A DNA stretch of 64,000 nt from Verrucomicrobiia bacterium (GCA_963664225.1 OY760937.1:64001-128000); one strand, 5' to 3'; shown: positions 1,179 through 57,079, counted from the stretch's first letter. Notes: generated by a model from the sequence alone, not told the origin. A program made the numbers and translations.

Positions 1179-1301
1179 ATAATCGGCGGAAAAGACGGGA
1201 GCGTTGAGCGGTGGAAATCCGTCCAACCAAAGTGGCTCGCTGTCAGTGGTGTTTGAGAATTGGACAAGAAAATGCTGCTATCATGGCAGCCCAATAACTA
1301 T

Positions 1302-3275: not shown

Positions 3276-3281
3276 TTGTAT

Positions 3282-5291
3282 ATGTTGCGAATACTGCGAT
3301 TGAGTTTGTTGCTGGCGCTGGTCTCACTGGCCGCGCCCAGGGCGTTCGCGTTTGCGTTTATTGGGCCTTTTGCCACCAATCAGAATGAACGGATTGGTTA
3401 TAACGTGCATGGATTTGACATCGGCGGTGTCATGCTGCGGGATGAAGGTTACCGGTGGAATGTGCCCATCATCACCTATGCTTTTGACGCATCGTTTATT
3501 CAATATTTTGGATCCAACGGAGTGCGCGCGGTGACGCTGGCGATGGAATCCTTCAACAAATACACGACAAATCTTGATAAGATGACCGATGCGGATTTGA
3601 AGAAGGTGTCCTTGGATACGACCCGCATCAATTATCAGGCGCAGGCATTGGGAGTTGACGATCTCAAGACGCACGTCATGGGTTATCTGACGGAGGAATT
3701 GGGGCTGGCCTCGCCGGATCGATATGTGTGGTGCTTGAGAAACCGTCAGACATTTTCAAATCCCGACTATACGAACTATGTTGTGATTCAGCGGAATTTT
3801 GATCCCATCACATTGAATCCATCGAGCTACGTCAATGGGACACTCTATACTTACACCATTTATGACCGGCTGTTGATTAATCCAGATGTGGCAGACGCCT
3901 TGGAAGTTCCAGTGGATCCGTTGCGGCGGGAAACCGCTGTTGCCTCCGCCATTGACAATATTGTAACGGTTGGCTCCCAACAGCCAGGACGTTTCTTCAC
4001 CGGATTGACCCGTGACGACGTGGGTGGCCTGCGTTTCCTAATTGGGCCAAGCACCTTGCGTCAAGAGACGTTGCCCAATTCGGGCACGATAACCGCCGAC
4101 CTGGCGGTGACCAATTTGCAGGCCTTGCAGTTGATTACGACGTCCAACATTGTGGATCTGGTGAGCAACACCTGGCATACGACCAATACGCCGGCGCAGG
4201 TGCTTGCGATTTATCCCAACTTGAATTTGACCAGCACCAATACCTATCTGACCAACATGCCAGTGACGAATGTGGTCTTTTACTACACTAACTTCCCTTG
4301 GACGCCGATTGATCAGCCCCCGGTGCTGACTTCGAATGTGTGGTTGACGTACATCCCGACGATTGCGTTCGATTATGGTTTCGATAATGTGGTCACCAAT
4401 CACTATTCCCCATTCTCATTGGTCGCCCTTCGATCAACAGTAGTGGGTTTTGCCCCCTGGACGCCTGTCGGGACCATTTCCACCAATGTAAGTTCGCGAT
4501 ACTATATGACCAACGTGGGATCGGGCGATTTCTATATCATTCCACCAACCAATCAGGGTTTCGTTTTGGTCACCAACATGCTGACGATGGTGAGCACCAA
4601 TACCAACACATTGAGCCTGATCACGAATTTCGTGACCAATGCGTTCAACACCAACGTGGTATCGACAAACACGGCGGGAGCGAGCAACACATTTTTGGTC
4701 AGCACCCAGTTGGATTTGGTCACCTTCTTCACAAACTCGACTTTTGCAATGTATCCCATTGAATGGCGCAACGACACGAACACGGCGGGGTTGCGGCCTG
4801 GTGTGGGTCACATTGAGTTCAAGCGGGTCGATTTCGATTCGGTCATCGGCCAGGTCTTTACGCCGATCACGAACTTCTTTACGGACACGGTCATTACCAA
4901 CGGAATTAAAATCAAGCGGACTGTGCGGCTGCGGGCCACCGCGCCGGATATTTTGTTTGTGGCGGAGGATCTGGGTTTGACGACGGGCGGATATCCCGTG
5001 ATTTCCGCGCGCACCGACACCGGAGCCTGGCAGAATAACACCGCATTGAACCGCGCCGGGTCCGGAGCCGGGCCCGGGAACATATTTGGTCCGGTCACAC
5101 TACGGTTTTCCAATATTGGAGCATGGCAACTTAATGAGACGCCGTCGTTCCTGACTGAGGCGTCGAGTTTTCGAGGATTTGCCTGGGGATCATTTGACGG
5201 ATCGACGAACGCTCCAGTGGTCTATCCGGACGACGGCAAGCAGACATTGGATTATCTGGAACGGATCATTCTCCAGTCGGGTGGGAAATAG
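3282..5291 (+). CDS. Secreted Thr/Asn-rich protein with a degenerate matrixin-like (metzincin-fold) N-terminal domain
   Basis: Signal peptide ending AFA; RWNVPIITYAF and LTRDDVGGLRFL resemble M10 flanking motifs, but no HExxH is present; TN-rich central region. Confidence 0.7.
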   Translation: MLRILRLSLLLALVSLAAPRAFAFAFIGPFATNQNERIGYNVHGFDIGGVMLRDEGYRWNVPIITYAFDASFIQYFGSNGVRAVTLAMESFNKYTTNLDKMTDADLKKVSLDTTRINYQAQALGVDDLKTHVMGYLTEELGLASPDRYVWCLRNRQTFSNPDYTNYVVIQRNFDPITLNPSSYVNGTLYTYTIYDRLLINPDVADALEVPVDPLRRETAVASAIDNIVTVGSQQPGRFFTGLTRDDVGGLRFLIGPSTLRQETLPNSGTITADLAVTNLQALQLITTSNIVDLVSNTWHTTNTPAQVLAIYPNLNLTSTNTYLTNMPVTNVVFYYTNFPWTPIDQPPVLTSNVWLTYIPTIAFDYGFDNVVTNHYSPFSLVALRSTVVGFAPWTPVGTISTNVSSRYYMTNVGSGDFYIIPPTNQGFVLVTNMLTMVSTNTNTLSLITNFVTNAFNTNVVSTNTAGASNTFLVSTQLDLVTFFTNSTFAMYPIEWRNDTNTAGLRPGVGHIEFKRVDFDSVIGQVFTPITNFFTDTVITNGIKIKRTVRLRATAPDILFVAEDLGLTTGGYPVISARTDTGAWQNNTALNRAGSGAGPGNIFGPVTLRFSNIGAWQLNETPSFLTEASSFRGFAWGSFDGSTNAPVVYPDDGKQTLDYLERIILQSGGK

Positions 5292-43438: not shown

Positions 43439-44092
43439 ATGAATCCGAAGCGCGCATTCACTTTGATCGAATTGCTGGTGGTCATTGCCATCATTGGCAT
43501 TCTCGCTGCGCTTCTGCTGCCAGCTTTGAGCCAGGCCAGGGAGAAAGGGAGAAGAACCTCCTGCATTGGCAATCTCAGACAGGTCAATCTGGCCATACAT
43601 CTCTACGCCGATGATAACGCGGGATCATTGCCGGTTTTGCCAAACCCCAATCCATTTCCAAATGGCATCGGCGCATACTACAAACAGCTTGTTAAAAGCT
43701 ACCTGGGTCTAAAAGGTCCGGCATCGCCGAACGAGACCGTTTTCACCTGCCCATCGGATCGAATCATGAAAACGCAAGTGGGACATGCGTTTACGAGCTT
43801 CACATTTAACGGCTACGAAGTGGGACCAGGCGCCATGCCACGCATCACGGGCAAAAAGTTGGATGCCATCAAGAATCCTGCGCGGGCGGTGCTGGTCGGC
43901 GAGTGGCCTGCGTTCTTTGGAGGTTCGTGGCATCCGGTTGTCAAACAAGTGTATCCGGACGCAAAAAATGTCCTGAGCTTTGTCGATGGACATGCGAGTT
44001 TTACCAAAATCTATTGGGACGGCGTTGCGGATTCAAATCCGGGCGGTTACGAACCCCCTGCGGGCTACGATTACAGTTGGGATGGAGAATGA
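43439..44092 (+). CDS. Prepilin-type N-terminal cleavage/methylation protein (pseudopilin-like)
   Basis: [32 protein letters not shown]...NVLSFVDGH. Confidence 0.9.
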
Positions 44093-44290
44093 GATGGCCT
44101 GTCGCATCGCTATTGATGGCTTCAGAATTCCGAAAATGCGGTATTGTCAACGGACGGGGTTGAAGTCAGGATTGGAGCACAATGACCCCTGTCTGTGCTG
44201 CAAAGTTTGCAGGATTCCTTGTCGAAACCGACAAGGATGTCCGCAGAACAGTCGTCTTCTGAAACGGAATCAATCCTTTCCAAACCCAAA

Positions 44291-45667
44291 ATGAATGACT
44301 CAAAGTTTTCCGCGATCAACCGCCGCCGGTTTTTGCAAAACGCCGGTGCCGGTGTGGCCCTGTTGAACATCCTGCCCGGCAGCCTTGTAAAAGGGGCTGA
44401 CAAATTGACTCCAAATGAAAAGGTCAATGTGGCGGCCATTGGCATCGGGAGCCAGGGCGGCTCGGACTTGGACGCCGTGGCGAACGAGGGACATAACATT
44501 GTGGCCCTGTGCGATGTGGATGATAACTATGCCGCCAAGAAGTTTGCGCAGTATCCCAAGGCGACGAAATTCAAGGATTTCCGCGTCATGCTCGACAAGA
44601 TGGGCAAGGAGATCGACGCCGTGGTGATCGGCACACCGGATCATACACATGCCGTCATATCCATGGAGGCCATGAAGCGCGGGAAACACGTTTATTGCGA
44701 AAAACCGCTCACCCATACGGTTCACGAGGCCCGCGAGATCATGGCGGCTGCGAAAAAATACAAAGTCGTGACCCAGTTGGGCAATCAGGGGCATTCGAGC
44801 GGGGACATTCGCAAGCTCTGCGAATGGGTCTGGGCCGGGGCCATTGGCAACGTGCATACCGTTCATGCGGGATGCGACGCCTTCAAAGATGTCTATTCCC
44901 AGATCCGCAACCTTGAAAAGGCAAAACAAAGTTACGAGGTGCCCAAAGGTCTGGATTATGACCTGTGGATCGGGCCGGTACCGTTCCGTCCCTACACTCC
45001 ACTTTGGGTGCCGTGGAACTGGCGCGGTTGGATGCCGTTTGGCACAGGAAGCATTGGCGATTGGTTCTGTCACGTGATCGATCCCTCGTTCTGGGCGCTC
45101 GATCTGGATGCCCCCACCTCCGTGCATGCGGAAGTGACCGGTTACGATGCCGTCAAACAAGGTCTGACGTATCCTCCCGGCTCAAAAGTCACCATGGAAT
45201 TTCCCGCCAGCAACGGGCGCGGTCCCATCAAGCTGGTCTGGCATGACGGCGACACCAAGATTCCCAAACCGTCCGATTTCCCCGCCGAGGAAAATGCGCC
45301 GGGCATCGGTGGTATCCTGTTCGGGGATAAGGGAATGATTGTTCATGGATCGCACGGCGCGGGCGGCTGCCGATTGCTCCCCGACAAAGTGATGGACCAA
45401 TACACCGGGAAAAACGCACCCGCGCAGAAGATTCCGCGCGTGAAAAACCATCAGTGGGACTGGCTGGATGCCATTCGCAACGGACGCCAGGCAGGATCCA
45501 ATTTCGGCTATGGCGGCCGTTTGACTCAGGTGGCGTTGCTGGGCGCCATCGCCATTCATTTCCCGGGCGAAACGCTCAAGTGGGATAATCAGGCCGAACG
45601 TTTCACCAACAACGAGGCGGCGAACGCCTTGATCAATCCGGCCTATCGCCCGGGTTGGAGCCTGTAA
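44291..45667 (+). CDS. Tat-exported Gfo/Idh/MocA family oxidoreductase
   Basis: NRRRFLQ twin-arginine signal; IGIGSQG, TPDHTH, CEKP. Confidence 0.92.
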   Translation: MNDSKFSAINRRRFLQNAGAGVALLNILPGSLVKGADKLTPNEKVNVAAIGIGSQGGSDLDAVANEGHNIVALCDVDDNYAAKKFAQYPKATKFKDFRVMLDKMGKEIDAVVIGTPDHTHAVISMEAMKRGKHVYCEKPLTHTVHEAREIMAAAKKYKVVTQLGNQGHSSGDIRKLCEWVWAGAIGNVHTVHAGCDAFKDVYSQIRNLEKAKQSYEVPKGLDYDLWIGPVPFRPYTPLWVPWNWRGWMPFGTGSIGDWFCHVIDPSFWALDLDAPTSVHAEVTGYDAVKQGLTYPPGSKVTMEFPASNGRGPIKLVWHDGDTKIPKPSDFPAEENAPGIGGILFGDKGMIVHGSHGAGGCRLLPDKVMDQYTGKNAPAQKIPRVKNHQWDWLDAIRNGRQAGSNFGYGGRLTQVALLGAIAIHFPGETLKWDNQAERFTNNEAANALINPAYRPGWSL

Positions 45668-45771
45668 CATGCTCTGGCCAGGCATTGGGCGCTGGCGAAT
45701 TTAATGGAAGCAACAGGTGCGGCGGAAACTGCCGCACCTGACGGTTTAATTGTGTGATGGCGTGGTGGATT

Positions 45772-46536
45772 TCACTGCGCCGGGCGCACGGCCCCGAAGA
45801 CTTTTTGGAGCAGATCGCTGGTGCGGGCCACGGGGTTTTCGCGGATGCGCTTTTCTTCGTCCCCGATTTTTACAAACAGCCCGTCCATGGTTTTGCGCGT
45901 GACGTAACCATCGATGTCAGGGGTGTTCTGGCCCAAGACGGACATTGCCGAGAAACCACCAAAACTGGCTTTCTGGGCCATGGCTTTATAGGCCCCGGTG
46001 ACGCCGGTCTGGGCGGTTGCCTTCTGGACGATGGGCAGGAATCGCTGGTAAAGATTCGTCTCACTGGTGCGTTTGAAATAGGCCGTGGCGGCGTTGTTGG
46101 TGCCGGTGAGGATGGTTTTGGCGTCGGCGAGTGTCATTTGTTTGACGGAGTCACCGAGGACCGTCGCGGCCTCGGGCACGGCCTGCTCGGCCGCCCGGTT
46201 CATCGTGGTCACGAAATCATCGACCAGTTTGTCCTGCCCCAAAGCGCGTAGAGTCTTCTCCACTTTTTGCAGCGGCTCCGGCGTGGGTATCATCACGGCG
46301 GCGTCCTTGAGGAAGCCGTCCTGTTTGCCAAGCGTTGCCACAGCGCGTTCGACGCCTTTGCCCAGGGCCTCCTTGAGGCCGCCTGCGATTTCATCGCTGG
46401 AGAGCGCGGTGGTCAGCGCGGAGGTGTCCGTGGTCGCGGTTTTTCCCAGCCCGAGCCAGTCGAACATGCCCGCCGACGGAGCGATGGAACTCAGAACGAG
46501 CGCAAGTGACAACAGGAGAAGGGGAATGCTCTTCAT
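45772..46536 (-). CDS. DUF4197 domain protein
   Basis: GLKEALGKG, MNRAAEQA, YVT.K..DGLF..I..EEK.IR.NP.AR..DLL.KVFG. Confidence 0.9.
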   Translation of the reverse strand: MKSIPLLLLSLALVLSSIAPSAGMFDWLGLGKTATTDTSALTTALSSDEIAGGLKEALGKGVERAVATLGKQDGFLKDAAVMIPTPEPLQKVEKTLRALGQDKLVDDFVTTMNRAAEQAVPEAATVLGDSVKQMTLADAKTILTGTNNAATAYFKRTSETNLYQRFLPIVQKATAQTGVTGAYKAMAQKASFGGFSAMSVLGQNTPDIDGYVTRKTMDGLFVKIGDEEKRIRENPVARTSDLLQKVFGAVRPAQ

Positions 46537-46712
46537 ATCATGAATAATAACCTTGGAAACAACCTCGCGCCGGACGCGCAAAAATGCAAGATGGAGTTGG
46601 ACTTGAGACCCTCTTGTTCAGGGTGCATGACAAAATTCAGGAAGCTGGTAAAAGCCTAAACCGTACGAACCCAGCCAGAACTCCAGCCGGCGGTGTGGGG
46701 CATATAATCCGG

Positions 46713-47260
46713 CGCGGCGGCATCCTCCAAACCGTGCAATAAACCCGCGACTCGCAATACTCCTCCCTCGCCTGGGGGGGTGGGGATGAGAATTCCCCGA
46801 ACCGAAAAGATCGCGCATTGAACCCCTGTACCAGGTATTTATGCAAGTAACTTGTAATGAAATACATCCCACTTTGGGTTCATGGGCAGGGCGTGCATCA
46901 ATGCCTTTTTCCATTTCGCATGGTTCGCATATTTCGTGGTCAAAATCCTTTTCAATTCCATTGTCCATCATCTATTTTCGCTGAACCAATCCCGCGCGGC
47001 GGCAATCACCCAAACCGTGCAATAAACCCAGGACCCGCAACACTTCTCCTTCTCCTGGGGGAGAAGGTCGGGATGAGGGCGTGCGTCAATGCCTTTATTA
47101 TTCCATTATCCATTGTCCACTATCAATTGTCCCTTATCCATTCTTCCCTCACCCATCCCCATCCATTTCCAAAACCTCCCTGTCCTCAACCCGGAACGGG
47201 TTGCATCACTCAGCCCCGGGTCGCGAGGCACGAGCCACCCGGGGTCCCCGTCCCCCAACA
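46713..47260. repeat. Mosaic of REP-like and MITE-like repeat modules (left part of the element)
   Basis: cgcggcggca..ccaaaccgtgcaa leader at 46713 and 46995; ccttctcctgggggagaagg palindrome; cccctgtacc..ggttcatggg module; short tccatt/ttcgcat repeats. Confidence 0.75.
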
Positions 47261-47297
47261 TTCGCCTACGCTGTAAGCGTTGAATCAAATTCAAACA

Positions 47298-47471
47298 ATG
47301 CCCTCCAATCCCCAGGCCCTTGACGTGCTCCTGCGCCGGGCCCGCAACCTCTGCCTCTCCGCCCTCATCGAAGCCGTGCGCGACCAGACCCGCATCGTCG
47401 ATCCCAAACAAGTCAACCGAGTGCTCATTCAACCCCATTGGAGGAAAGACTGTGACAGCCCCATCGCCTAA
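47298..47471 (+). CDS. Small hypothetical protein
   Basis: 57-aa ORF overlapping the start of the next ORF; no recognisable motif. Confidence 0.35.
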   Translation: MPSNPQALDVLLRRARNLCLSALIEAVRDQTRIVDPKQVNRVLIQPHWRKDCDSPIA

Positions 47472-47763
47472 ATCCAACTTCTTGCCACATCCTCGAACGA
47501 CCAATCGGTGGACCCGCGAACAAATCCGCGCCGCCCGGATGGCCCCGCTGCCACCGCTCCTGACAAAGTACGGTCTGCAAACAACCCCGCTGCCCGCTGG
47601 CAATTTGGCACTGTCCGCCTTCAAGGGCCTGATCGTCAAAGACTCCTACTGGCGCTGGCCTGAACAAAACAAAGCAGGCAATGCCATCGACTTCCTTGTC
47701 CAAGTCCTTGGCCTCTCCTTCAACGAGGCCATGCACCAGATCATTGGAACACCGCAATCTTGA
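47452..47763 (+). CDS. Small protein resembling the N-terminal (CHC2-type) domain of primases, without the Cys ligands
   Basis: GGAGGA RBS at 47440, GTG at 47452; GNAIDFLVQVLGLSFNEAM matches the GxxIDF....xxSFxEA helix pattern. Confidence 0.55.
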   Translation: MTAPSPKSNFLPHPRTTNRWTREQIRAARMAPLPPLLTKYGLQTTPLPAGNLALSAFKGLIVKDSYWRWPEQNKAGNAIDFLVQVLGLSFNEAMHQIIGTPQS

Positions 47764-47937
47764 GATACAGCCATAAAACGCCGCTGGTGTCGCAGTGATG
47801 CGACGCCAGTGCGGCAAATTACGATCCCACCTCGGCATGATTACGACAGGAATTTGGCCCGGCCATAAGCGTCACATGCGTACGACCCGAGCGGGGCAAT
47901 CCGGCTGAAAAAGACGATGGCAGTTCGGCAATATCAC

Positions 47938-48372
47938 TTAAAACGCTGCGAGCTTAATTTGGCCAAAAGTACGACGCCAATTAATTTCGTAACAGCTGGG
48001 ATAAACTGACCATTTTTGACGACTCATCCGCCCCCAGGCAATGGCCTGTTGACGATAAAAATAGGTGGTTCGTTGTCTCCCGGGATCGTCTGTGGCCGCT
48101 GGAATGACACTGCAAAAAAGCTCAAATTGACGGGTGATTTTCTCGCGTGTCATTGGCTCCACCGATGGTGCATCTGCGGTAACGGCTAAAAGGTTTTTGC
48201 TGAATGCGGCCACTCGTTCAAGGGCTTCCTCGCGGGTGTTGGCGTGAACAAAACCAATCAATGGATTCATTTCCTCTGGCAGGAAAAGGAACCATTTTTT
48301 GTTTCCGTTACAGATCGATTGTGCGTTCCGGCTCTGGAGCTCTGATTCGTTGTTTTCTTGGGAAGTTTTCAT
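47938..48372 (-). CDS. Hypothetical protein
   Basis: 144-aa ORF with ATG start; no recognisable motif. Confidence 0.5.
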   Translation of the reverse strand: MKTSQENNESELQSRNAQSICNGNKKWFLFLPEEMNPLIGFVHANTREEALERVAAFSKNLLAVTADAPSVEPMTREKITRQFELFCSVIPAATDDPGRQRTTYFYRQQAIAWGRMSRQKWSVYPSCYEINWRRTFGQIKLAAF

Positions 48373-49176
48373 GGTCTTTTTTTAAGATCTGATGTGCGCT
48401 CTCGGTCTATCGCCCTTCACACCCAAGGCCCGCGAATCAGGGCGGATCGTGGGAGTAGTCTTCAGAGGGCACCGCCATGTCTTACCCCCTGTCGAAGTCG
48501 GTCTAAGAGGGCGATGATTGAAAGCGTCAGAAGTGAAATAAAATCTGAAAACGAGGGAACTCCATTTCCTCTATGAATGGAGCAAAGCGACCTGACCGGG
48601 AGGGGATGGGGCTGGCTCGCTCGTGAATTTCTGGAAGCCTTTAGCGGAGTGAAGCGGTTGGACGGGCTGTCAGTTCAAGGGAGCCCTATGAAAATTAACA
48701 GTCAGGCCAACCAGCGAAACGGAGCGGTGGCGAAAGAAAGCTCATCGAGGGAGCACCATGGGGGAGCGCAAGTCTTCCGATGTTTCAAGGCGTAGCTCTT
48801 TCAAGGGGAATCGAAAGCTCGGATGTCTTGCGGGGGGGGAGGACTCGTTCTGCTGAAATTTTCTATGGGATGGCTGTGGATAGCATTCATTTCAATGGTT
48901 GGTCCGATTCGAATCGTTGATTTGCTCAGTCCGTTTTGCAAGAGTCGCGTTTCGCAACTGTTCCTGTTGTTGCAGGAATTTCGTCCAGTCGGCAGCGGGA
49001 ACATTTGTAATATTGCCGCCAATAAGTAGCACGGCACGACCGCCAAAGAAATTGCGTTTTCCATTATAGTACAAACCCGCATGAGTTTCCATCGCATTCA
49101 TTTATAGTACTCAACCTCCTTGTATAATAACCTTAAAGTATGATTTTCACATTTTAGAAACACGCGCTCAGAACAA

Positions 49177-49599
49177 TTAGTTCGTATCGTACACATAATA
49201 CACTCCATTTGTCAATTGACGCCGAAATCCGTAGTTGTTTATTTTAGCATCTGTGGAGCCAATCATTATACCTTCTCGCTCAATCCCAAGTTTAAAACCG
49301 ACAAAGATAAACTTAAAACCTGTTTGGGTATCTATCTGGATTTGGACAACTATCGGGTGGAGTCTGGAAAGTTGTTGAGGATAGACTGCAGGGGAGAATA
49401 TAAACCCATTCTCATTCGTTGAATTCAATTGATCTTTTGCCCATGTGACAATTGATACAAGTTCACTTTTATTTAAGACATTAACATTAAATGTTTCCCA
49501 TCTGACCTCCGGGTTTGTATTGTTTGAACTACAGCCAGCTACCAGCAGACCTGCTAAGAAAAAACACATATTTGATTTATACCAATTACTAAGAGACAT
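49177..49599 (-). CDS. Lipoprotein, putative immunity protein for the upstream Rhs toxin
   Basis: LVAGC lipobox; AT-rich; starts 6 bp after the Rhs stop codon. Confidence 0.65.
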   Translation of the reverse strand: MSLSNWYKSNMCFFLAGLLVAGCSSNNTNPEVRWETFNVNVLNKSELVSIVTWAKDQLNSTNENGFIFSPAVYPQQLSRLHPIVVQIQIDTQTGFKFIFVGFKLGIEREGIMIGSTDAKINNYGFRRQLTNGVYYVYDTN

Positions 49600-49605
49600 A
49601 AAACA

Positions 49606-51219
49606 TTACTCAAATGGGAGTTTTTTGTTAGGATACCATCGCCAAACGAACGTTTTCAAACCACACGGACTACTCCGATTGGAATCGCATTGCGTTTGTT
49701 CAACAGGTGGTCCCACAGCCGACATTGATCCATAGCTTCCACCAAATCCGACAGTGGTAAACAACTTAGCGCCTTGATTATACTGTTCCGGATCACCATG
49801 GCTAGTTTTCCAGTAATCTACCGCAGCGATAGCCATCTGCTCGCTCCATATTTGACCAGTCACAGCTTGCCCCCAAGTTGGCGACATTGAATTGCCAACT
49901 GCATCAAGAACTCCTTGAAATCGCTGATGACATAAATTATTGACCTTTCCCCACATTAAATAATGAACATCTCCAGCAAAGAAACATCGCCCGCCATACT
50001 TTACAGTACGATCACACTTTGGCGCATCTCCGCGAATAGCGGCAGCCGGGAATGACCAGCCACCATATCCGAGATTGGCAAGTTGCATCATCATCCACGA
50101 TCCACTAGCTGTTGATAAAGGCATGTAAAGACTCCTACATGCGTTTGCAGCCTTTCCAACATCCCAACTCTTGAAAGTCGCTTCAATTTCATTGAGAGTT
50201 GATTGAACTGCTGTTGTCACGTCAGGCCCACACCTGCAAGTAGTTAAACCCAATGAATCAAATCTATCCACTGAGCGATTCCAAACGAACCCATACAAAT
50301 TGAGCCCTCCTTTCTCCGCAATCGGGTCTCTGGATAGCCACCTTCCAGTGCTGGCATTATAATACCGATACCCGTAATACACCAAATCTGTCTCATCGTC
50401 CTGGTATTTTGTCGAGAACCGGAAGGGGTTGAGCTTGGCCATGGGTCCTGTGGAGCGGAGGAGTTCACCGAAGGGGCCGTATTCATACCGGGCGCAGACC
50501 AAGCCATCAGCGGCATTGACCAGCGCGGTGAGGTTGCCGTTGCCATCGTAGGTCGCAAAACAATTCGTTGTTGCTGTGCCATAATAGGTGACCGCAAGCA
50601 ACCCACCCACACCACCAGCTCCTTGTGCGGTGCCACTCAAGTCCAGTCCCCACAGATAGGAACGGACCAGTTGATTGGCGCTGTTAAACTCGGCAACCAG
50701 GTTCCATCCATCGTAAAGGTATTTGGTATCTGTGATGATGGAGTTATCAGATTTCTTCACGGTCTTGCGAATGCGTCTTCCCCGCCAGTCATACTCGAAA
50801 ACCAAATGCTGCGCATCAGGTCCGGCAACCAGGCAATCCATCCCGATCAGCCGATTCTCCGCATCCCAAGTGTAACTCCACACCATGTCATTGATCATGT
50901 TTCCATCAGAATCAGGTGTGAAAGTCTGTGTCGCCGCCGGAACCAGCACATGGCCCGGAGCGCTCGTAGGCTGCTGGACAGTGCGACCGCCTTTTGTTGC
51001 CGTGACGAGCACTGGGGTCCAGACAGAGGCACTGCTATTTCCCGCAGTTCCAACCGCCTGGAAGTACTCATTTTTTCGATAAACGGTCTGGGCGCCGCCA
51101 TTGATTGTGACACCAACCGTTGCTGCCTTATTAGCATTACCCATCACATCAATCGAGGTCGAAACCTGTCTGCTGGTGTATTGGTTAACGGTATTGGCGG
51201 TATAGCTGGCCGTTCTCAT
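49606..51219 (-). CDS. 5'-truncated (orphan) Rhs repeat-associated core protein with variable C-terminal toxin domain
   Basis: YTWDAENRL, YEYGPFGE, NPFRFSTKY.D.ET.LVYYGYRYY...GRWLSRDPI.E.GG.NLYGFV...DSLGL, then ~210-aa Cys-containing tip. Most YD repeats are missing. Confidence 0.85.
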   Translation of the reverse strand: MRTASYTANTVNQYTSRQVSTSIDVMGNANKAATVGVTINGGAQTVYRKNEYFQAVGTAGNSSASVWTPVLVTATKGGRTVQQPTSAPGHVLVPAATQTFTPDSDGNMINDMVWSYTWDAENRLIGMDCLVAGPDAQHLVFEYDWRGRRIRKTVKKSDNSIITDTKYLYDGWNLVAEFNSANQLVRSYLWGLDLSGTAQGAGGVGGLLAVTYYGTATTNCFATYDGNGNLTALVNAADGLVCARYEYGPFGELLRSTGPMAKLNPFRFSTKYQDDETDLVYYGYRYYNASTGRWLSRDPIAEKGGLNLYGFVWNRSVDRFDSLGLTTCRCGPDVTTAVQSTLNEIEATFKSWDVGKAANACRSLYMPLSTASGSWMMMQLANLGYGGWSFPAAAIRGDAPKCDRTVKYGGRCFFAGDVHYLMWGKVNNLCHQRFQGVLDAVGNSMSPTWGQAVTGQIWSEQMAIAAVDYWKTSHGDPEQYNQGAKLFTTVGFGGSYGSMSAVGPPVEQTQCDSNRSSPCGLKTFVWRWYPNKKLPFE

Positions 51220-51334
51220 GGCAATCACATCGTTGACAACAAACGCAGCCTGCTCTCCAAAAACCGCCTTGGCAACAGGAACTTTGCCGCCCTCTGGTTT
51301 GCCTTCCGCGTACTCGCGTCCATTCCTTCGTCCG

Positions 51335-52802
51335 TCAACCCCACGCGGCGGCACATTCCAAGTCATCCAATCGTCCAGAAAACGCGAAACAGTCCTCCCT
51401 CTCCGCTCTGGGGACCACGATGCGCGAAGCGCACGTCCCTTATTGGGCCACCAACTCGTGGCGGGCTTGGGAAGCCATTGGGCGGGGTGAGGTGGCTGGT
51501 CCCATCATTCCCGTCCAAATACACCAGCAACCCCCACTCCTCATTCTCCTGGGGGCCGGGATGAGAATTTCCCTAAACCAGGTATTTGTGCAAGTTACTT
51601 GTAATGAATTACATCCCACTTTTTGGTTCATGGGAAGGGCGTGCGTAAATGCCTTTTTCCATTTCGTATGGTTCGCATATTTCGTGGTCAAACTCGGTCC
51701 CTTTTCCCTATCCGTGCAATCCGTCATATCCGTGGTTAAAAATCTGCCCCCGCCAACCCCACGCGGCGGCACCTTCCAAACCGTGCAAAAAAACCAGGAC
51801 TCGCAATACTCCTCCCTCTCCGCTTTGGGGACCACGATGCGCGAAGCGCACGTCCCTTATTGGGCCACCAACTCGTGGCGGGCTTGGGAAGCCATTGGGA
51901 CGGGGTGAGGTGGCTTTTCGTATCCCATCATTCGCATCCAGGGTGTTCGTTTTTTCGATGCCTCAATTGTCCATTTTCTCCCTCATCCGTGCCATCCGTG
52001 CCATCAGTGCCATCAGTGGTTAAAAATCCTGCTCATCCTGCTTATCCATGTTGATATTTCTTCACCCACTTCTTTCCATGTAACTTGTAATGAAAGACAT
52101 CCCACTTTGGGTTCATGGGGAGGGATGAGAATTCCCCGAACCGAAAAGATCGCGCATTGAACCCCTGAACCAGGTATTTATGCATGTTGCTTGTAATGGA
52201 AGACATCGCACTTTTGGGTTCATGGGTAGGGCGTGCGTCAATACGTTTTCCATTTCGCATATTTCGTGGTTAATTTCCTTTTTTCTTTTCTTGTCAATCA
52301 TCCATTCTCCACTCGCCAACCCCACGCGGCGGCACCTCCAAACCACCCACTTGGTCATATGTCAATTGTCCCCTCGCCAACACGGTGCGGCCGTATCCTC
52401 CAAACCGTGCAAAAAAACCAGGACTCGCAATACTCCTCCCTCTCCGCTTTGGGGAGAGGGACGGGGTGAGGTGGCTTTTCGTATCCCATCATTCGCATCC
52501 AGGGTGTTCGTTTTTTCGATGCCTCAATTGTCCATTTCCTCCCTCATCCGTGCCATCCGTGCCATCAGTGGTTAAAAATCCTGCTCATCCTGCTTATCCA
52601 TGTTGATATTTCTTCACCCACTTCTTTCCATGTAACTTGTAATGAAAGACATCCCACTTTGGGTTCATGGGGAGGGCGGTCGTCCTTTCGTATCTGACTT
52701 TTGCCGGACCCTCAATCGGCGCCCGGCCATTCCCGAAACTCTTGCATTATTTGTTTCTTATATACTCACAAGCCCTTTTTAAGGACTTTTTTGCTCGCCG
52801 AA
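51335..52802. repeat. Tandemly duplicated nested repeat array (right part of the element)
   Basis: Leader motif at 51344, 51762, 52325 and degenerate at ~52386; identical 65-bp inserts at 51415-51479 and 51832-51896; ~220-bp near-identical duplication 51897-52124 vs 52458-52676. Confidence 0.85.
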
Positions 52803-52829
52803 GAATTATGTCCTGCACCCTCTTCTTCA

Positions 52830-53149
52830 GGGTGCAGGACATAATTCAGGAAGCTGGTAAAAGCCTAAACCATACGAACCCATCCAGGACTCCAGTCTGC
52901 GGTGTGGGGCATGGTATCCGACGCGGCGGCATCCTCCAAACCGTGCAATAAACCCAGGGCTCGCAATACTCCTCCTTCTCCTGGGGGAGAAGGCCGGGTT
53001 GAGGGCGGTCGTCCTTTCGTATCTGACTTTTGCCAGACCCTCAATCGGCGCCCGGCCATTCCCGAAACTCTTGCTATATTTGTTTCTTATGTACTCACAA
53101 GCCCTTTTTAAGGACTTTTTTGCTCGCCGAAGAATTATGTCCTGCACCC
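52830..53149. mobile_element. 320-bp MITE, minimal version of the adjacent 6.2-kb element
   Basis: Perfect 18-bp TIRs gggtgcaggacataattc / gaattatgtcctgcaccc; identical 9-bp flanks tcttcttca (52821-52829, 53150-53158); both ~150-bp halves match the ends of the large element. Confidence 0.85.
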
Positions 53150-53330
53150 TCTTCTTCATTCGCCCGATTTGCGGACTTGATTTGCCTTGGGTCATGGTTT
53201 ACAGAATTGGGTCGTAAAGCTGTAATTGGGTCTTGAGTGTGGGGATCATATTGTGCAACTTTTGCCAACCTTGGCGCCAATGGAGTTGGCTCCGGGAGGG
53301 CAAGTCCGGTGTGGGTTTGCGTATTAATAA

Positions 53331-54218
53331 ATGAGAGCTTTGATTATCGCCGCGTTGTTTTGGGTCCAGTTCCCGGTCGCCCAAGCCGCTGAGGCGTCCG
53401 CCGAGGCGGAAGGCCATGGCATTCCTTTGCACGCGGTTGAAATCTTCAAAATTGGGCCGTTTCCCATCACCAATTCCATTCTGGTCACCTGGTTTGTGGC
53501 TCTGGGCATCATCCTGTTCGCCCGCCTGGCCACCCGTCAAATGCGCGACGTTCCCTCGGGCGCGCAGAACTTGTTGGAATGGCTGGTGGAGGGGCTCTAT
53601 GATTTTCTTACGGGCATCATTGGATCGACCCTGGCCAAAAAGACCTTCTGGTTTTTCGCCACGGTTTTCATTTTCATCCTGAGCGCGAACTGGTTCGGAT
53701 TGATCCCCGGAGCCGGCACGATTGGCTGGGGGCATGCGGGCGAGAAAGGGTTCGTCGTCACCGAACCGTTCTTTCGCGGGGTCAACGCCGATCTGAACAT
53801 GACATTTGCGATGGCGATGATTTTCTTTGTTCTTTGGACGGTTTGGGCGCTGCAAATCAACGGCATCAAGGGATTCTTTATGCATATTTTCGGGGCTCCC
53901 AAAGGAGACATGCAGGGCATCATGAAGTTTGTGATGGCGGCAGTGTTTTTGATGGTCGGTTTGCTGGAGGTCGTTTCGATTATGTTTCGACCCGTTTCTT
54001 TGAGCTTTCGTCTATTTGGAAACGTCTATGCGGGTGAGAACATGCTCGAGGCGATGTCCAACATCGTCCCCCAACTCAACTGGCTCATCCCGGTGCCGTT
54101 TTATTTTCTGGAAGTATTGGTGGGCCTGATTCAGGCCATGGTGTTCATGTTATTAACGGCGGTGTTTACGCAGCTCATTTGCCAGCACGAGGAGGACCCC
54201 GGGGCCGCGCACCATTAA
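53331..54218 (+). CDS. atpB: F0F1 ATP synthase subunit a
   Basis: RPVSLSFRLFGNVYAGE, LIQAMVFMLLT. Confidence 0.96.
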   Translation: MRALIIAALFWVQFPVAQAAEASAEAEGHGIPLHAVEIFKIGPFPITNSILVTWFVALGIILFARLATRQMRDVPSGAQNLLEWLVEGLYDFLTGIIGSTLAKKTFWFFATVFIFILSANWFGLIPGAGTIGWGHAGEKGFVVTEPFFRGVNADLNMTFAMAMIFFVLWTVWALQINGIKGFFMHIFGAPKGDMQGIMKFVMAAVFLMVGLLEVVSIMFRPVSLSFRLFGNVYAGENMLEAMSNIVPQLNWLIPVPFYFLEVLVGLIQAMVFMLLTAVFTQLICQHEEDPGAAHH

Positions 54219-54285
54219 AGAAACAATTTCGGCGGCTGGATCGTGGCAAACGCGAGGGCCGCTGACCAAAGCACAAAGGAAACGT

Positions 54286-54501
54286 ATGATGATCCCCCTG
54301 TTAGCGGAAATGAATGGCAATATCCACATCGCTGGCGCCTGTTTGGGCGCGGCACTGGGTGTGGGCTTGATTGGCGCAAAAGCCTCGGAAGCGGTCGGAC
54401 GCAATCCAGGCGCATCCACGAAGGTCCTTGTTCAGGCCATTCTGAGCACGGCCTTCGCCGAAGGTATCGTGTTTTTCGCGATTTTCCTGGCGGGTAAGTA
54501 A
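54286..54501 (+). CDS. atpE: F0F1 ATP synthase subunit c
   Basis: GxGxxG helix, GRNP loop, AFAEG proton-binding Glu. Confidence 0.95.
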   Translation: MMIPLLAEMNGNIHIAGACLGAALGVGLIGAKASEAVGRNPGASTKVLVQAILSTAFAEGIVFFAIFLAGK

Positions 54502-54555
54502 TTCGCGGATGCGGTGATTTGAAGTCACCGCGTCCGTTTACTTTGTTTCGGTGTT

Positions 54556-55107
54556 ATGAATTCGTATATTTTATTGGGCAATATTGCCGGGGACTTGAGC
54601 CAGTCGGGGCGTGAAGTCGTCACCACGTTCGGTTTGAGCTGGCCGGCGTTCATCGCGCAGGTGATCAGTTTCACCATTGTGGCCCTGGCTCTGCGCCAAT
54701 GGGCTTACAAGCCCATCCTGCAGGTGCTTGAATTCCGCCGCCAGACCATTGCCGACGGTATTTCCAACGCGGAAAAGATCAAAGCCGAACTGGCAAAGGC
54801 CGAGACGGCCCGCAAGGAAATCATCGTCCAGGCCAACGCCCAGGCCAATGAATTGATCGCCGAAGCGCGTGCCGCTGCAAGCCGCGTCAACGAGGTCGAG
54901 ATTCAAAAAGCGGTGGCCGCCGCCGAACAGATCATTGCCAAGGCGCGCGAGGCGGCTCTGGCCGACCATGCCAGGATGCTTGCCGATCTCAAACGCGAAG
55001 TGGGCCGGCTGGTGGTCGAAACGACTGTCCGGGTCTCCGGCAAGGTGCTGACGATGGAGGATCAACAGCGGTTGATCCGGGAAACCAATGACCAACTGGC
55101 CGCCTGA
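54556..55107 (+). CDS. atpF: F0F1 ATP synthase subunit b
   Basis: AQVISF..V..L...AYKPI..L..R, coiled coil; operon position. Confidence 0.95.
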   Translation: MNSYILLGNIAGDLSQSGREVVTTFGLSWPAFIAQVISFTIVALALRQWAYKPILQVLEFRRQTIADGISNAEKIKAELAKAETARKEIIVQANAQANELIAEARAAASRVNEVEIQKAVAAAEQIIAKAREAALADHARMLADLKREVGRLVVETTVRVSGKVLTMEDQQRLIRETNDQLAA

Positions 55108-55139
55108 AGCGCTGCCGTGACGAAACAACGGATTCTCCC

Positions 55140-55535
55140 ATGAAAGCCTCCAAACTGGCCCGCCGCGAAGCAAAAACGCTCCTGAAACTGTGCAGGGTCG
55201 ATGGCCTGATCGATGCCTCCCGCGTTCAACTCGTGGTCAACCGGTTGATCGCTACAAAACCCAGGCAATATGTGGCGATTCTGACCGATTTCTATCGCCT
55301 TTTTCGGCTGGAAACCGAGATGAAAGCCGTTCAGGTTCAAACCGTTATCCCCTTGTCGGACACTTTGAAGTCCGACTTGCAGGCGAATCTGGATCGGCGT
55401 TATGGCAAAGGCCTCGAATATCAGTTTTCACAAAATCCCGCTTTGCTGGGCGGCATGCGTGTCCAGGTGGGCAGCGATGTTTTCGACGGCAGCATCCGCG
55501 CGCGATTGAATGCGCTGGAAGAAAAATTTAACTGA
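55140..55535 (+). CDS. atpH: F0F1 ATP synthase subunit delta (short form)
   Basis: [25 protein letters not shown]. Confidence 0.93.
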
Positions 55536-55537
55536 AC

Positions 55538-57079
55538 ATGAGCACGTTATTACAAGATATTGAAGCCCAGATTGCCGGTGTAAAAACCAATGTAAACCGG
55601 CAAAACGTGGGTGTGGTCCGGGAAATCGGCGATGGTGTGGCCAAGATTGAGGGCCTCAACGATGTCATGGCCAACGAAATGATCGACTTCGGTCATGGCG
55701 TGATGGGTCTGGCATTGAACCTGGAGGAAACCGAGGTGGGCGCCATTATTCTGGGCGATTACACCCACATCAAGGAGGGCCAGGAAGTCCGCACCACCGG
55801 CAAACTGCTGCAGATTCCCGTGGGCAAAGGCTTGCTCGGTCGCGTGGTGGACGTCCTCGGCAATCCGTTGGACGGCAAGGGTCCCATCGTCAGCGACACG
55901 GCGTATCCGGTGGAAAAAATCGCTCCCGGCATCATCAAGCGCCGCTCGGTCACTCAGCCGGTGCAAACGGGCATCCTGCCCATCGACGCCATGATTCCGA
56001 TCGGTCGCGGCCAGCGAGAACTGATCATTGGCGATCGTTCCACCGGCAAAACGACGATTTGCATCGATACGATCATCAATCAGGCGCGGATGAACAAGGC
56101 GGCGGAGGCGTCCAAGGAAAAGGATTTTCGCCCTCTATATTCCATCTACGTCGCTGTGGGGCAGAAACAGTCGAACATTGCCCGTGTGATCAGCGTGCTC
56201 GAAGAAAACGGAGCCATGCCCTACACGATCATCGTTGTGGCCAGCGCCTCGGATTCCGCCACCAACCAGTATCTGGCGCCGTTCTCGGGATGCGCCATCG
56301 GCGAGTGGTTCATGGATAACGGCATGGACGCGCTGATTATTTTTGATGATTTGTCCAAGCACGCCGCGGCTTACCGTCAGGTCTCCCTCATTTTGAAGCG
56401 TCCCTCCGGTCGTGAAGCCTATCCGGGCGATGTATTTTATCTCCATAGCCGGTTGCTGGAGCGTTCCGCGCGGTTGAACGAAAAGAGCGGCAACGGCTCG
56501 CTGACGGCGTTGCCGATCATCGAAACCCAGCTAGGCGACGTTTCGGCTTACATTCCCACGAACGTGATTTCCATCACGGACGGCCAGATTTTCCTTGAAA
56601 CCGATTTGTTCTATCAGGGCATTCGTCCTGCAATTTCCGTCGGCATTTCAGTCTCCCGCGTCGGTTCCGCCGCGCAGATCAAGGCTATGAAGCAGGTGGC
56701 TGGACGCGTCAAGCTCGAGCTGGCCCAGTTCCGTGAATTGGCCGCTTTCGCTCAATTCGGATCGGACCTGGATGCGGGTACGGCGGCGAAGATCGAGCGT
56801 GGCAAACGCATTGTGGAAATCTTCAAACAGGCCCAGTACAACCCCATTCCGGTCGAGATCCAGGTGGCGGTGATCTGGTGCTCGCAAAACGGTTATTTCG
56901 ACGATGTGCCGGTGGAAAAGGTCAAGGATTTCCAGGCGAAATTGACGGATTACCTGACGGGCCGCAAACCGGAGCTTCTGGCGAAGATTGCAAAGGAAAA
57001 AGCGCTCAACGACGCGCTTTCCGCCGACCTAAAGGCGGCCATTGTGGAATTCAAACAGGGATACAATCCCAAGGCTTAA
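55538..57079 (+). CDS. atpA: F0F1 ATP synthase subunit alpha
   Basis: [36 protein letters not shown]. Confidence 0.98.

Follow-up and report, generated by a model that had tools for sequence, protein, structure and literature searches.

The window analysed here is a 64,000-nt stretch of the genome of a Verrucomicrobiia bacterium (GCA_963664225.1 OY760937.1:64001-128000), and positions are those of the window unless the genome is named. The region under study lies between a DUF4197 gene on the minus strand (45772..46581; PF13852, 248.5 bits) and atpB, which encodes ATP synthase subunit a, on the plus strand (53331..54218; PF00119, 150.9 bits). Sequence inspection and self-comparison placed a tandem at 46612-53158 in the order TSD–TIR–6200 bp–TIR–TSD–TIR–320 bp–TIR–TSD. 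This layout had been proposed in an earlier note on this DNA and proved exact to the single base, with all features at their proposed positions. The target duplication (TSD) reads tcttgttca in the left copy (46612..46620) and tcttcttca in the middle (52821..52829) and right (53150..53158) copies, and the left copy matches the other two at 8/9 positions. The 18-bp TIRs occupy 46621-46638 (GGGTGCATGACAAAATTC), 52803-52820, 52830-52847 and 53132-53149, the last three being identical (GGGTGCAGGACATAATTC or its complement). The junction at 52803-52847 is a perfect 19-bp inverted repeat with a 7-nt centre, and its DNA fold of -21.5 kcal/mol was equalled by 0 of 200 shuffles.

The small unit (52830..53149, plus strand; 320 bp) has perfect 18-bp TIRs and a 9/9 duplication, and consists of a left and a right end with a single REP-like hairpin module between them; self-comparison and folding bore out its earlier description as two ends joined by one REP-like palindrome. 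The large unit (46621..52820, plus strand; 6200 bp) carries the same ends, with 90% likeness between the left ends (171 nt) and 97% between the right ends (158 nt) of the two units. Its L half (46621-46789) and R half (52674-52820) are both complete halves of the 320-bp family. As had been claimed, the window lacks a transposase or integrase, insofar as the ISKra4 (NF033572), rve (PF00665) and Phage_integrase (PF00589) models gave no match within genome positions 64001-128000. Searches of Rfam with 44000-56000, 48350-48900 and 47100-47340 gave no credible match.

Between its two halves, the large unit holds 5.9 kb in which single-copy sequence (47310-51200) is bordered on both sides by modules that are multi-copy in the genome. 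The left repeat block (46790..47310) consists of X, a second REP-like A module and M1, each with 5 to 53 genome copies; M1 (47186..47300, plus strand; 68 matches) is a three-hairpin repeat at the point where a transposon remnant is cut off. Of this rve/AAA_22 transposon, whose kind has a Tn7/Tn5053/Mu-like layout of DDE (rve) transposase plus AAA+ helper, all that remains is a 49-codon 3' stub of a gene for an AAA_22 (TniB-like) transposition ATPase (47322..47468, plus strand), a small third ORF (47488..47763, plus strand) and the right end (47790..47994, plus strand). The ATPase remnant corresponds, at 79.6% amino acid identity, to residues 218-266 of the 266-residue enzyme encoded by an intact rve/AAA_22 transposon in a relative (G013, contig L030). 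The third ORF is 67% identical over 88 aa to the product of L030:2989-3270, and its only Pfam match was a sub-threshold one to a CHC2 zinc finger (E 0.093). The right end carries several ATGACGCCAGTTCGGCAAA-like repeated motifs, identified by eye, and ends in ...GTAACA; beyond 47997/48000 the sequence no longer resembles L029 and L030 at the nucleotide level. BLAST found no inverted repeats of this transposon in L030, and the rve transposase of the intact copy had no match in the Verrucomicrobiia genome.

Further along are a 144-aa ORF (47938..48372, minus strand) and a 98-aa ORF (48801..49097, minus strand), neither with a family match, and the M2 module (48716..48854), which has 6 copies here and lies beside Rhs pieces in other genera too. 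An orphan Rhs fragment of 586 aa (49606..51366, minus strand) comprises the last ~340 residues of the shell, the core motif and a ~210-aa C-terminal domain, the putative toxin. It scored 32.9 bits with PF05593 and 77.5 bits with TIGR03696 (residues 296-374), so that YD/RHS repeats and the core domain are present, and it aligns to residues 1513-1888 of a 2031-aa genomic Rhs; ~1500 N-terminal residues, and with them a full-length shell of well over 1000 residues, are absent. The genome has two full-length rhs genes (383804-389878 and 1484248-1490340). Downstream of the fragment, a 140-aa ORF (49177..49599, minus strand) with a lipoprotein-type N-terminus and 36-40% GC is a putative immunity gene, as judged from its position and low GC. 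Pfam, NCBIfam and PHROGs returned nothing for the 144-, 98- and 140-aa ORFs or for the C-terminal 214 aa of Rhs. The right repeat block (51207..52673) is composed of N, A, X and Y, one stretch of it being duplicated internally at 99% identity. Portions of the repeat blocks recur at other loci with 97-99% identity.

Repeats this dense could mislead an assembler, and among the listed short-read contig pieces none spans the tandem junction or reads through the internal repeats. An assembly artefact, in the tandem or in the large unit, is nevertheless highly improbable. The genome is a single 5.78-Mb contig, and among the four short-read runs compared, two reproduced the outer joins between flank and element and all unique pieces with 0 differences (45800-46658 and 53057-53800 at the flanks), the "joints" being cross-matches between repeat copies. 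Nor would a collapse or chimera leave three 9-mers and a mosaic of identities as orderly as these. Runs X16 and X17 gave little or no cover over 49271-50071, which proves nothing.

The ends of the two units are not a chance resemblance, as BLAST returned 33 L-type and 29 R-type matches across the genome, or roughly 30 of each. These matches include 20 copies in which L and R are paired, 13 of them 317-329 bp long, and the small copy is 86-92% identical to 12 other full-length copies. The 9-mers flanking the 20 paired copies match at 9/9 positions in 9 copies, at 8/9 in 4, at 7/9 in 2 and at 5/9 or fewer in 5, and the duplicated 9-mers differ in sequence from copy to copy. A 504-bp copy has no ORF of at least 110 residues except chance frames. 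The 320-bp unit is thus a MITE: it has TIRs, target duplications of fixed length and variable sequence, many small copies without a transposase of their own, and ends shared with an autonomous IS, described below. The prediction of TIR elements with 9-bp duplications and no transposase is borne out, and both the other TIR-bounded copies and the cognate IS for which a BLASTN search of the ends had been suggested were found in this genome. Two more abutted TIR pairs are present elsewhere in the genome, with spacers of 9 and 8 nt; one of these is head-to-head, with one end of different subterminal sequence. Outside this genome, a 34-nt left-end pattern had 0 matches in metagenome_contigs and genome_contigs, and in 40 relatives the MITE was not found, the central hairpin (query 143-183) being the only part matched.

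The variable 9-mers also bear on a second proposal of the earlier note, an att array whose junctions serve a site-specific recombinase and share the 13-bp core accctctt(g/c)ttca. This 13-mer does occur at all three junctions, the middle one of which is a perfect palindrome. The other 18 paired copies, however, carry differing 9-mers, most of them duplicated on both sides, and a tyrosine recombinase (PF00589) is missing from the window; the palindrome amounts to a pair of facing TIRs. Because the 9-mers differ between copies, the "core" can be broken down into the final 4 bases of the TIR and the duplication of this one site, joined at the left flank by a coincidence of 4 bases. We regard an att array as barely credible. 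The same four bases, accc, before the left 9-mer were considered as a target preference and rejected as coincidence, the flank columns outside the duplication being almost free of information.

A single ISKra4-family match was found genome-wide (NF033572, 244.9 bits). It lies in an IS of 1755 bp (genome 5219103-5220857), 5.1 Mb from the tandem, whose ends are the 18-bp TIR of the MITE with 1 and 0 mismatches and whose right end shares a 23-nt match with the MITE R ends; the TIRs end in ...GCACCC. The transposase of this partner IS scored 248.4 bits against NF033572 (cut-off 205) and 80 bits against the ISLre2 model (cut-off 200). The earlier guess of a Mutator-like enzyme (ISKra4, ISLre2 or IS256) was right, for no IS other than this ISKra4-family one has these termini. 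The flanks of this copy show no matching duplication. The transposase is encoded in two ORFs with a -1 frame change at an A-run; this change is probably programmed rather than a defect, because the two-ORF -1 layout is common to all 4 of the homologues examined in relatives (67-68% amino acid identity). Elements of the IS3, IS110 and IS701 families that lie between TIR matches were rejected as sources of the partner enzyme, being nested or neighbouring ISs.

Counting outward from 160 TIR ends in this genome, TTG began at position +28 in 35, whereas the counts at the remaining 59 offsets ranged from 0 to 11. In this subset of 35 ends, A stood at +52 in 22 and T at +56 in 24, a signal that is that of a predicted -10 box after a 17-nt spacer. 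The 35 flanks were all distinct, with one near-duplicate pair. In other genomes, 12 of 71 ends had TTG at +28, against 0-6 at the other offsets. In this the elements behave as the ISKra4 group does, inserting at a set interval upstream from sigma-70 promoters, at a spacing unlike the published 13-17 bp. The right flank of the small copy has TTGATT in the +28 slot, 149 nt before atpB, as part of a putative atp promoter (53177..53205, plus strand; TTGATT, 17 nt, TACAGA) whose TTG lies 28-30 nt outside the MITE end. This promoter is weak, with 4/6 and 3/6 matches to the E. coli consensus, and was not picked up by a strict consensus promoter scan. Of the 20 paired 320-bp-family copies, only 9 carry an exact TTG at this position in one or other flank. 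The enrichment of the TTG offset and the TTGATT slot upstream of atpB together uphold the idea of promoter targeting put forward in the earlier note.

What the data show is a MITE family with its duplications, an IS with matching ends, the promoter offset and, in the large unit, fragmentary content. From these we arrive at a reading that we consider probable: two promoter-guided MITE insertions at one 9-bp target, with later invasion of the distal copy. The single ISKra4-family (Mutator-like DDE) transposase would move the MITEs in trans, binding their 18-bp ends, making a 9-bp staggered cut and choosing a target at a set distance from a sigma-70-type promoter, with 27 nt between the element end and the TTG of the -35 box. 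Following a first insertion, the promoter-side duplicate of the 9-mer would retain its spacing to the promoter. A second insertion guided by the same promoter would then cut the same 9 bases, because the duplicated 9-mer had kept that spacing, and yield TSD-E1-TSD-E2-TSD; promoter guidance would thus account for the use of one 9-mer twice. On this reading the promoter-proximal, intact 320-bp copy would be the younger and the distal copy the older. The latter would have been split mid-way, within its central REP-like module, by 5.9 kb consisting of arrays of repeat modules, the dead 3' end of the rve/AAA_22 transposon and a piece of an Rhs locus. This insert as a whole has no ends or duplication of its own, and it probably entered by recombination between dispersed repeats.

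The two copies could alternatively have been made in place from one element, by unequal exchange or as an (IS)2-type dimer, with the left copy diverging and being invaded afterwards. In an (IS)2-type dimer, the abutted ends keep flanking bases as the spacer, and here the spacer is indeed the flanking 9-mer. The R halves of the two units are mutually nearest at 97.3%, the next best being 92.5%, and a rare TIR variant, T at position 13, is confined to three of the four TIRs of the tandem (the right TIR of the large copy and both TIRs of the small copy; three exact matches). In-situ duplication predicts the R halves and the variant directly, and for this reason a step of local gene conversion, which would have homogenised the right halves of both copies afterwards, was added to the two-insertion reading. 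The L halves, however, resemble each other no more than random family members do, ranking only 10th and 9th of 19, and the L TIRs differ at two positions; the left 9-mer is one base off, whereas the middle and right 9-mers are identical. From the L-half ranks and the 9-mer mismatch we infer that the two copies are of independent origin. Promoter guidance alone already predicts re-use of the 9-mer, and the head-to-head abutted pair with a different subterminal end is not given by a dimer of one element. We therefore consider an origin in place unlikely and retain two successive insertions, whose order, like the entry route of the 5.9 kb and the gene conversion, is reconstructed from these patterns. 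An allele with an empty site or with one copy was sought in 40 relatives and in metagenome_contigs and was not found. The relatives supply no empty site because DUF4197 and atpB, which are ~65-76% identical there, are not neighbours; the empty-site pattern (left flank, any 9 bases, right flank) had 0 matches in metagenome_contigs, a collection that may omit the records of this genome.

The large unit had been described as one of a family of gene-capture cassettes, and it could be a true loaded cassette, the counterpart of a MIC or Pack-MULE, that was filled elsewhere and transposed here whole, in trans. Both of its TIRs are within family variation (1 mismatch each to the consensus), its flanking 9-mers match at 8/9 positions, and its payload includes a plausible, though putative, toxin/immunity pair. 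Passenger genes do lie between IS-type ends here, 5.9 kb of DNA separating the MITE halves. Ends and passenger moving as one unit were not seen: the unique core of the payload occurs once in the genome, no second unit was found, and searches of 40 relatives and two public collections returned neither the MITE nor the loaded unit. The payload is made up of repeats and truncated remnants, such as the Rhs gene lacking ~1500 residues and the 49-codon ATPase stub, and the 97-99% identity of parts of the repeat blocks to other loci fits recent local exchange. The family offers no parallel either, as the other six enlarged copies hold a nested IS (four copies, with IS transposase genes that are multi-copy in three and single-copy in one) or only repeat modules (two copies); 3 of the 6 keep a 9/9 duplication. 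In a 6.5-kb enlarged copy, the single-copy IS transposase gene lies beside single-copy ORFs, and the 6.2-kb unit is the only one of the 20 paired copies with ORFs that are neither repeat nor transposase and have no multi-copy IS adjacent. The notion of a gene-capture family does not stand against these contents, and transposition of the unit as a loaded whole is, in our estimate, improbable; invasion of a resident MITE is the reading we prefer.

The tandem is, in sum, a tidy but unexceptional example of a transposon family already known to seek promoters. It offers a natural example of target re-use, in which the duplicated 9-mer holds the spacing and copies stack with the youngest nearest the promoter, and it extends promoter homing of the ISKra4 type to transposase-less MITEs and to another phylum. 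A TTG 28 nt outside the end is a simple signature that could serve to locate promoters in genomes that have received little study. The large unit also illustrates that genes between transposon ends need not be cargo. A bolder and improbable reading is that such stacks serve as "landing pads", on which a promoter-homing Mutator-like system of Verrucomicrobiota-type genomes piles non-autonomous copies at one promoter, the 6.2-kb unit, its ends intact, then being a bacterial Pack-MULE. If this were true, the unit could carry the Rhs toxin/immunity module to new promoters whenever the single frameshift-controlled transposase is expressed.

Several known systems share features with the locus. BIMEs and REP arrays are composed of hairpin modules and short motifs, form variable intergenic arrays and are prone to local amplification. 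The repeat blocks of the large unit may resemble them in layout; the sequence families differ. The Rhs fragment has the make-up of an orphan Rhs tip/immunity module: a core domain, a divergent low-GC C-terminus, a small downstream ORF and a missing N-terminus. Such modules normally lie directly downstream of a full-length rhs gene; unlike them, the fragment has no full-length rhs gene nearby. Like MITEs, MICs and Pack-MULEs, the window elements have IS-type inverted ends and no transposase, and would be mobilised in trans. MICs (mentioned in PMC5444012) and Pack-MULEs (mentioned in the discussion of PMC3942029) carry passenger DNA between their ends, whereas the passenger core here is single-copy and made of remnants. 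TnGBS and ISLre2 (p-MULT 3) share with the present system a promoter-guided Mutator-like DDE enzyme and 9-bp duplications. Their transposase belongs to a different clade, as the ISLre2 score given above reflects, and TnGBS is large and conjugative and inserts in one orientation at 15-17 bp from the -35 box, in all of which the window elements differ.

The locus also has much in common with the ISKra4 family (p-MULT 4). The partner transposase passes its NCBIfam model, and the elements have 18-bp IRs that start with GGG and end in C, 9-bp duplications, and insertion in either orientation at a fixed distance upstream of sigma-70-type promoters, with near-perfect IRs. Sections of Guerillot et al. 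2014 (PMC3942029) describe IRs of 18-39 bp ending in C and duplications of 8-9 bp for this family, and insertion upstream of sigmaA promoters, in both orientations with near-perfect IRs, for the ISKra4 group. Unlike the family members described there, the window elements are transposase-less derivatives, and the word MITE is absent from the main text of that paper. The same sections report promoter targeting in the ISKra4 group only and ascribe the two-ORF -1 frameshift to the ISMich2 group; the partner IS resembles the latter in its frameshift and the former in its targeting. The spacing here, 27 nt to the -35 box, exceeds the promoter distance of 13-17 bp reported in PMC3942029 by about one helical turn, if the counting conventions are alike. 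A more modest form of the bolder reading above is that the enzyme lineage joins ISMich2-type frameshifting to promoter guidance, the spacer exceeding those described by one helical turn.

Sequence inspection and a repeat search of the window bore out all the features, with their positions, that an earlier note had described at 46612-53158. The window corresponds to genome 64001-128000, the genome being one contig of 5.78 Mb. Two units of 6200 bp and 320 bp lie in tandem between four 18-bp TIRs (46621-46638, 52803-52820, 52830-52847 and 53132-53149), flanked and separated by 9-bp target duplications (9-mers): tcttgttca on the left (46612-46620), and tcttcttca in the middle (52821-52829) and on the right (53150-53158). 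At the middle junction, 19-bp arms on either side of 7 nt make a perfect inverted repeat. The two units were 90% identical in their left ends and 97% identical in their right ends.

In a genome-wide BLAST search, the unit ends produced 33 L-type (left) and 29 R-type (right) matches, from which 20 L/R pairs were formed, with 12 ends of at least 60 nt left unpaired. Thirteen of the 20 pairs measured 317-329 bp and the remainder 504, 819, 1716, 1873, 2400, 6200 and 6543 bp. The flanking nine bases agreed at 9/9 in nine pairs, 8/9 in four, 7/9 in two and 5/9 or fewer in five, and they varied in sequence between copies. Such matching but copy-specific 9-mers indicate transposition with a 9-bp staggered cut, and the 320-bp unit is a MITE. 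A recombinase att array, the alternative offered earlier, was ruled out by the variation of the 9-mers beside the same TIR; its "13-bp core" resolved into the last 4 TIR bases, the duplication of this site and a chance match of 4 bases in the left flank. A second family, of elements about 190-200 bp long, has the same TIR at its ends (15 of 52 adjacent +/- TIR pairs measured 150-260 bp). Searches of 40 relatives for the 320-bp MITE matched its central hairpin alone, and an exact 34-nt pattern gave no match in two public collections. Repeats are often missing from MAGs, and we therefore describe the MITE as not found elsewhere rather than absent.

A candidate partner enzyme lies 5.1 Mb from the tandem, outside the window. 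An element of 1755 bp at genome 5219103-5220857 carries the same TIR (1 and 0 mismatches), and its right end is the same as the MITE right ends across 23 nt. It codes for an ISKra4-family transposase (NF033572, 248 bits against a cut-off of 205), the only such match in the genome, so that the family guessed in the earlier note proved right. The gene (genome 5219186-5220831; 1187-2832 of the extracted locus L011) is split between two frames: an N-terminal ORF (DUF6788) stops at nine consecutive A, and the -1 frame holds the catalytic ORF. Because all four homologues examined in relatives of other genera (67-68% amino acid identity) break likewise at a lysine/A-run, the sequence layout suggests that the break is probably programmed frameshifting and no defect.

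Alignment of the outward flanks of all 160 TIR matches (at most 3 mismatches) supported the idea that these elements target promoters. In the columns 28-30 nt beyond the end, read on the other strand, T, T and G were found in 81/160, 72/160 and 74/160 flanks. TTG started at +28 in 35 of the 160 ends, whereas each of 59 other offsets had 0-11. Among these 35, A was present at +52 in 22 and T at +56 in 24, which marks a -10 box behind a 17-nt spacer, pointing away from the element. The 35 flanks were all distinct, with one near-duplicate pair. An independent repeat with exact matches to the consensus TIR at 71 loci in public genome records placed TTG at +28 in 12/71 (other offsets, 0-6). By title, the MAG records with the exact 18-nt TIR were mostly Verrucomicrobiota, with single matches titled Planctomycetaceae, Chloroflexota, Bacteroidetes and others. 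Numerous contigs of one MAG break off at a distance of about 100-120 nt from the TIR, which is what an unassembled repeat would produce. In the tandem, the right flank of the small copy consists of the 9-mer, 18 nt, TTGATT (53177-53182), 17 nt and TACAGA, followed by atpB at 53331. However, this putative atp promoter is weak compared with the E. coli consensus, a strict promoter scan made no call there, and an exact TTG occupies the slot in only 9/20 paired copies of the 320-bp family.

This spacing suggests how two copies could come to share one site. After a first insertion, the promoter-side copy of the 9-mer would stay at an unchanged distance from the promoter; therefore, a later insertion directed by that promoter would cut the identical nine bases, between the first copy and the promoter. 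The outcome would be TSD-E1-TSD-E2-TSD, with the younger copy proximal to the promoter. An older distal and a younger proximal copy fits several details: the two 9-mers of the small copy are identical and the far-left one is off by one base, the decayed copy is the distal one, and the two L halves resemble each other no more closely than they resemble other members of the family (mutual rank 10 and 9 of 19). In contrast, the R halves are mutual nearest relatives (97.3%; next best, 92.5%), and a TIR variant is confined to the large copy's right TIR and the small copy's two TIRs. We attribute both observations to gene conversion, acting between direct repeats spaced 329 bp apart and also between the two arms of the palindrome at the junction. 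In-situ duplication or a transposase-made dimer explains them more directly and so remains a live rival of successive insertion. The failure to find an empty or a singly occupied allele also counts against successive insertion. In its favour, TIRs abut at two further places in the genome, with spacers of 9 nt (447410-447454) and 8 nt (4479631-4479674); the latter is head-to-head, and its partner end runs into single-copy DNA. The stacking mechanism merits a specialist's glance.

Compared with the 320-bp copy, the large unit keeps both halves in full (L, 46621-46789; R, 52674-52820), separated by 5884 bp that entered at the central REP-like module. The copy-number profile showed repeats at 46790-47310 and 51200-52673 and single-copy DNA at 47310-51200. 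The repeat modules, with 5 to about 60 copies each in the genome, also enlarge other MITE copies, such as those of 504 bp and 819 bp. A 230-bp stretch is doubled inside the large unit (99% identity), and the right 703 bp share 97% identity with genome 1659665-1660367.

Several of these modules have features of their own. M1 (47186-47300 and 67 further genome places; 68 BLAST matches) spans about 110 nt with three hairpins, a DNA fold z of -3.7 and, across 21 copies, pairing kept through two-sided changes at 5/20 predicted pairs; it had no Rfam match. It also occurs in tandem arrays, for example at genome 619352-622588, where six 615-bp units follow one another. The loop of the REP-like hairpin at about 51415-51485 and 51830-51900 contains an insert of about 67 nt, which the hairpin at 52437-52482 lacks; with 5 copies in the genome and 84-86% matches in relatives from two other families of the order, this insert may be a very small mobile element targeting the hairpin. 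The REP-like A module is repeated seven times in tandem at genome 157580-158442 (period about 135-150 nt). At genome 4347500-4359500, small lipoprotein-like ORFs on the minus strand, which may be orphan immunity genes, are surrounded by recurring M1, M2 and N modules; a toxin gene was not seen in this array.

The single-copy part of the insert consists of remnants. An AAA_22 ATPase gene is represented by its last 49 codons (47322-47468), and these, together with a small ORF (47488-47751), derive from a transposon with three genes (rve transposase, AAA_22 ATPase, small ORF), which the relative G013 carries intact (contig C67, positions 966-3530 of locus L030). Similarity to two relatives ends at 47997/48000, directly beyond a series of recurrent end motifs that finishes in GTAACA at 47994; by this sequence comparison, this is the true right end. 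No match to the rve transposase of the intact copy was found in this genome. In another relative (G005, contig C203; locus L029, 1914-5718), the distance from the right end to a small ORF and an opposite-strand Rhs C-terminal fragment is about 0.6-1 kb, as in the window, and the transposon may prefer sites downstream of Rhs loci.

The Rhs ORF of the insert (586 aa) contains an RHS-associated core domain (TIGR03696, 77.5 bits). On alignment it corresponded to residues 1513-1888 of a longer Rhs (2031 aa) coded elsewhere in the genome, and it is therefore an orphan tip without about 1500 residues; its first codons sit within a repeat module. GC content is low in the DNA for its last 214 residues and for the 140-aa lipoprotein-like ORF that follows; neither had a family match, and their layout suggests a putative toxin and immunity pair. 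Two full-length Rhs genes (genome 383804-389878 and 1484248-1490340; 2025 and 2031 codons) are nearly identical over the first 200 N-terminal residues and differ in their C-terminal tips, and another orphan tip lies at genome 2538697-2539740. A stretch containing a 72-codon ORF (48577-48795) and M2 (48716-48854), for which no protein or RNA family was found, is 75-87% identical at the nucleotide level in three other genomes, two of them in other genera, and adjoins Rhs pieces in one of the three.

Six other enlarged copies were compared, of which 4/6 contained IS transposase genes and 2/6 repeat modules alone. One transposase gene was IS110-like and present in about 10 copies, a second had about 6 copies, and a third, in the 1.7-kb copy, was rve-type and single-copy; the 6.5-kb copy, without a matching duplication, held a multi-copy rve-type IS alongside single-copy ORFs. 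A perfect duplication was kept in 3/6. The simplest reading is that the old copy was invaded after landing, and the 5.9-kb insert, for which no ends or duplication of its own were found as a whole, probably entered by recombination between dispersed repeat modules. Less probably, the 6.2-kb unit moved as one piece; its ends look usable, but nothing was seen to show that it ever did so. The earlier note correctly named the kind of element, the family of the enzyme and the targeting of promoters, whereas single-copy remnants here, and IS genes or repeat modules in the other enlarged copies, speak against its gene-capture family, which fell along with the att array.

The elements are ISKra4-family MITEs guided by promoters, a kind that is already known. 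Guerillot et al. (2014, PMC3942029) give a conserved -1 frameshift of this kind for the ISMich2 group, and describe ISKra4-group elements that insert upstream of sigmaA promoters, on either side if the IRs are near-perfect. Their distance is 13-17 bp, whereas here 27 nt separate the end from the -35 box; if the conventions agree, this longer distance counts against successive promoter-guided insertion. The combination of frameshift and spacing merits a specialist's glance.
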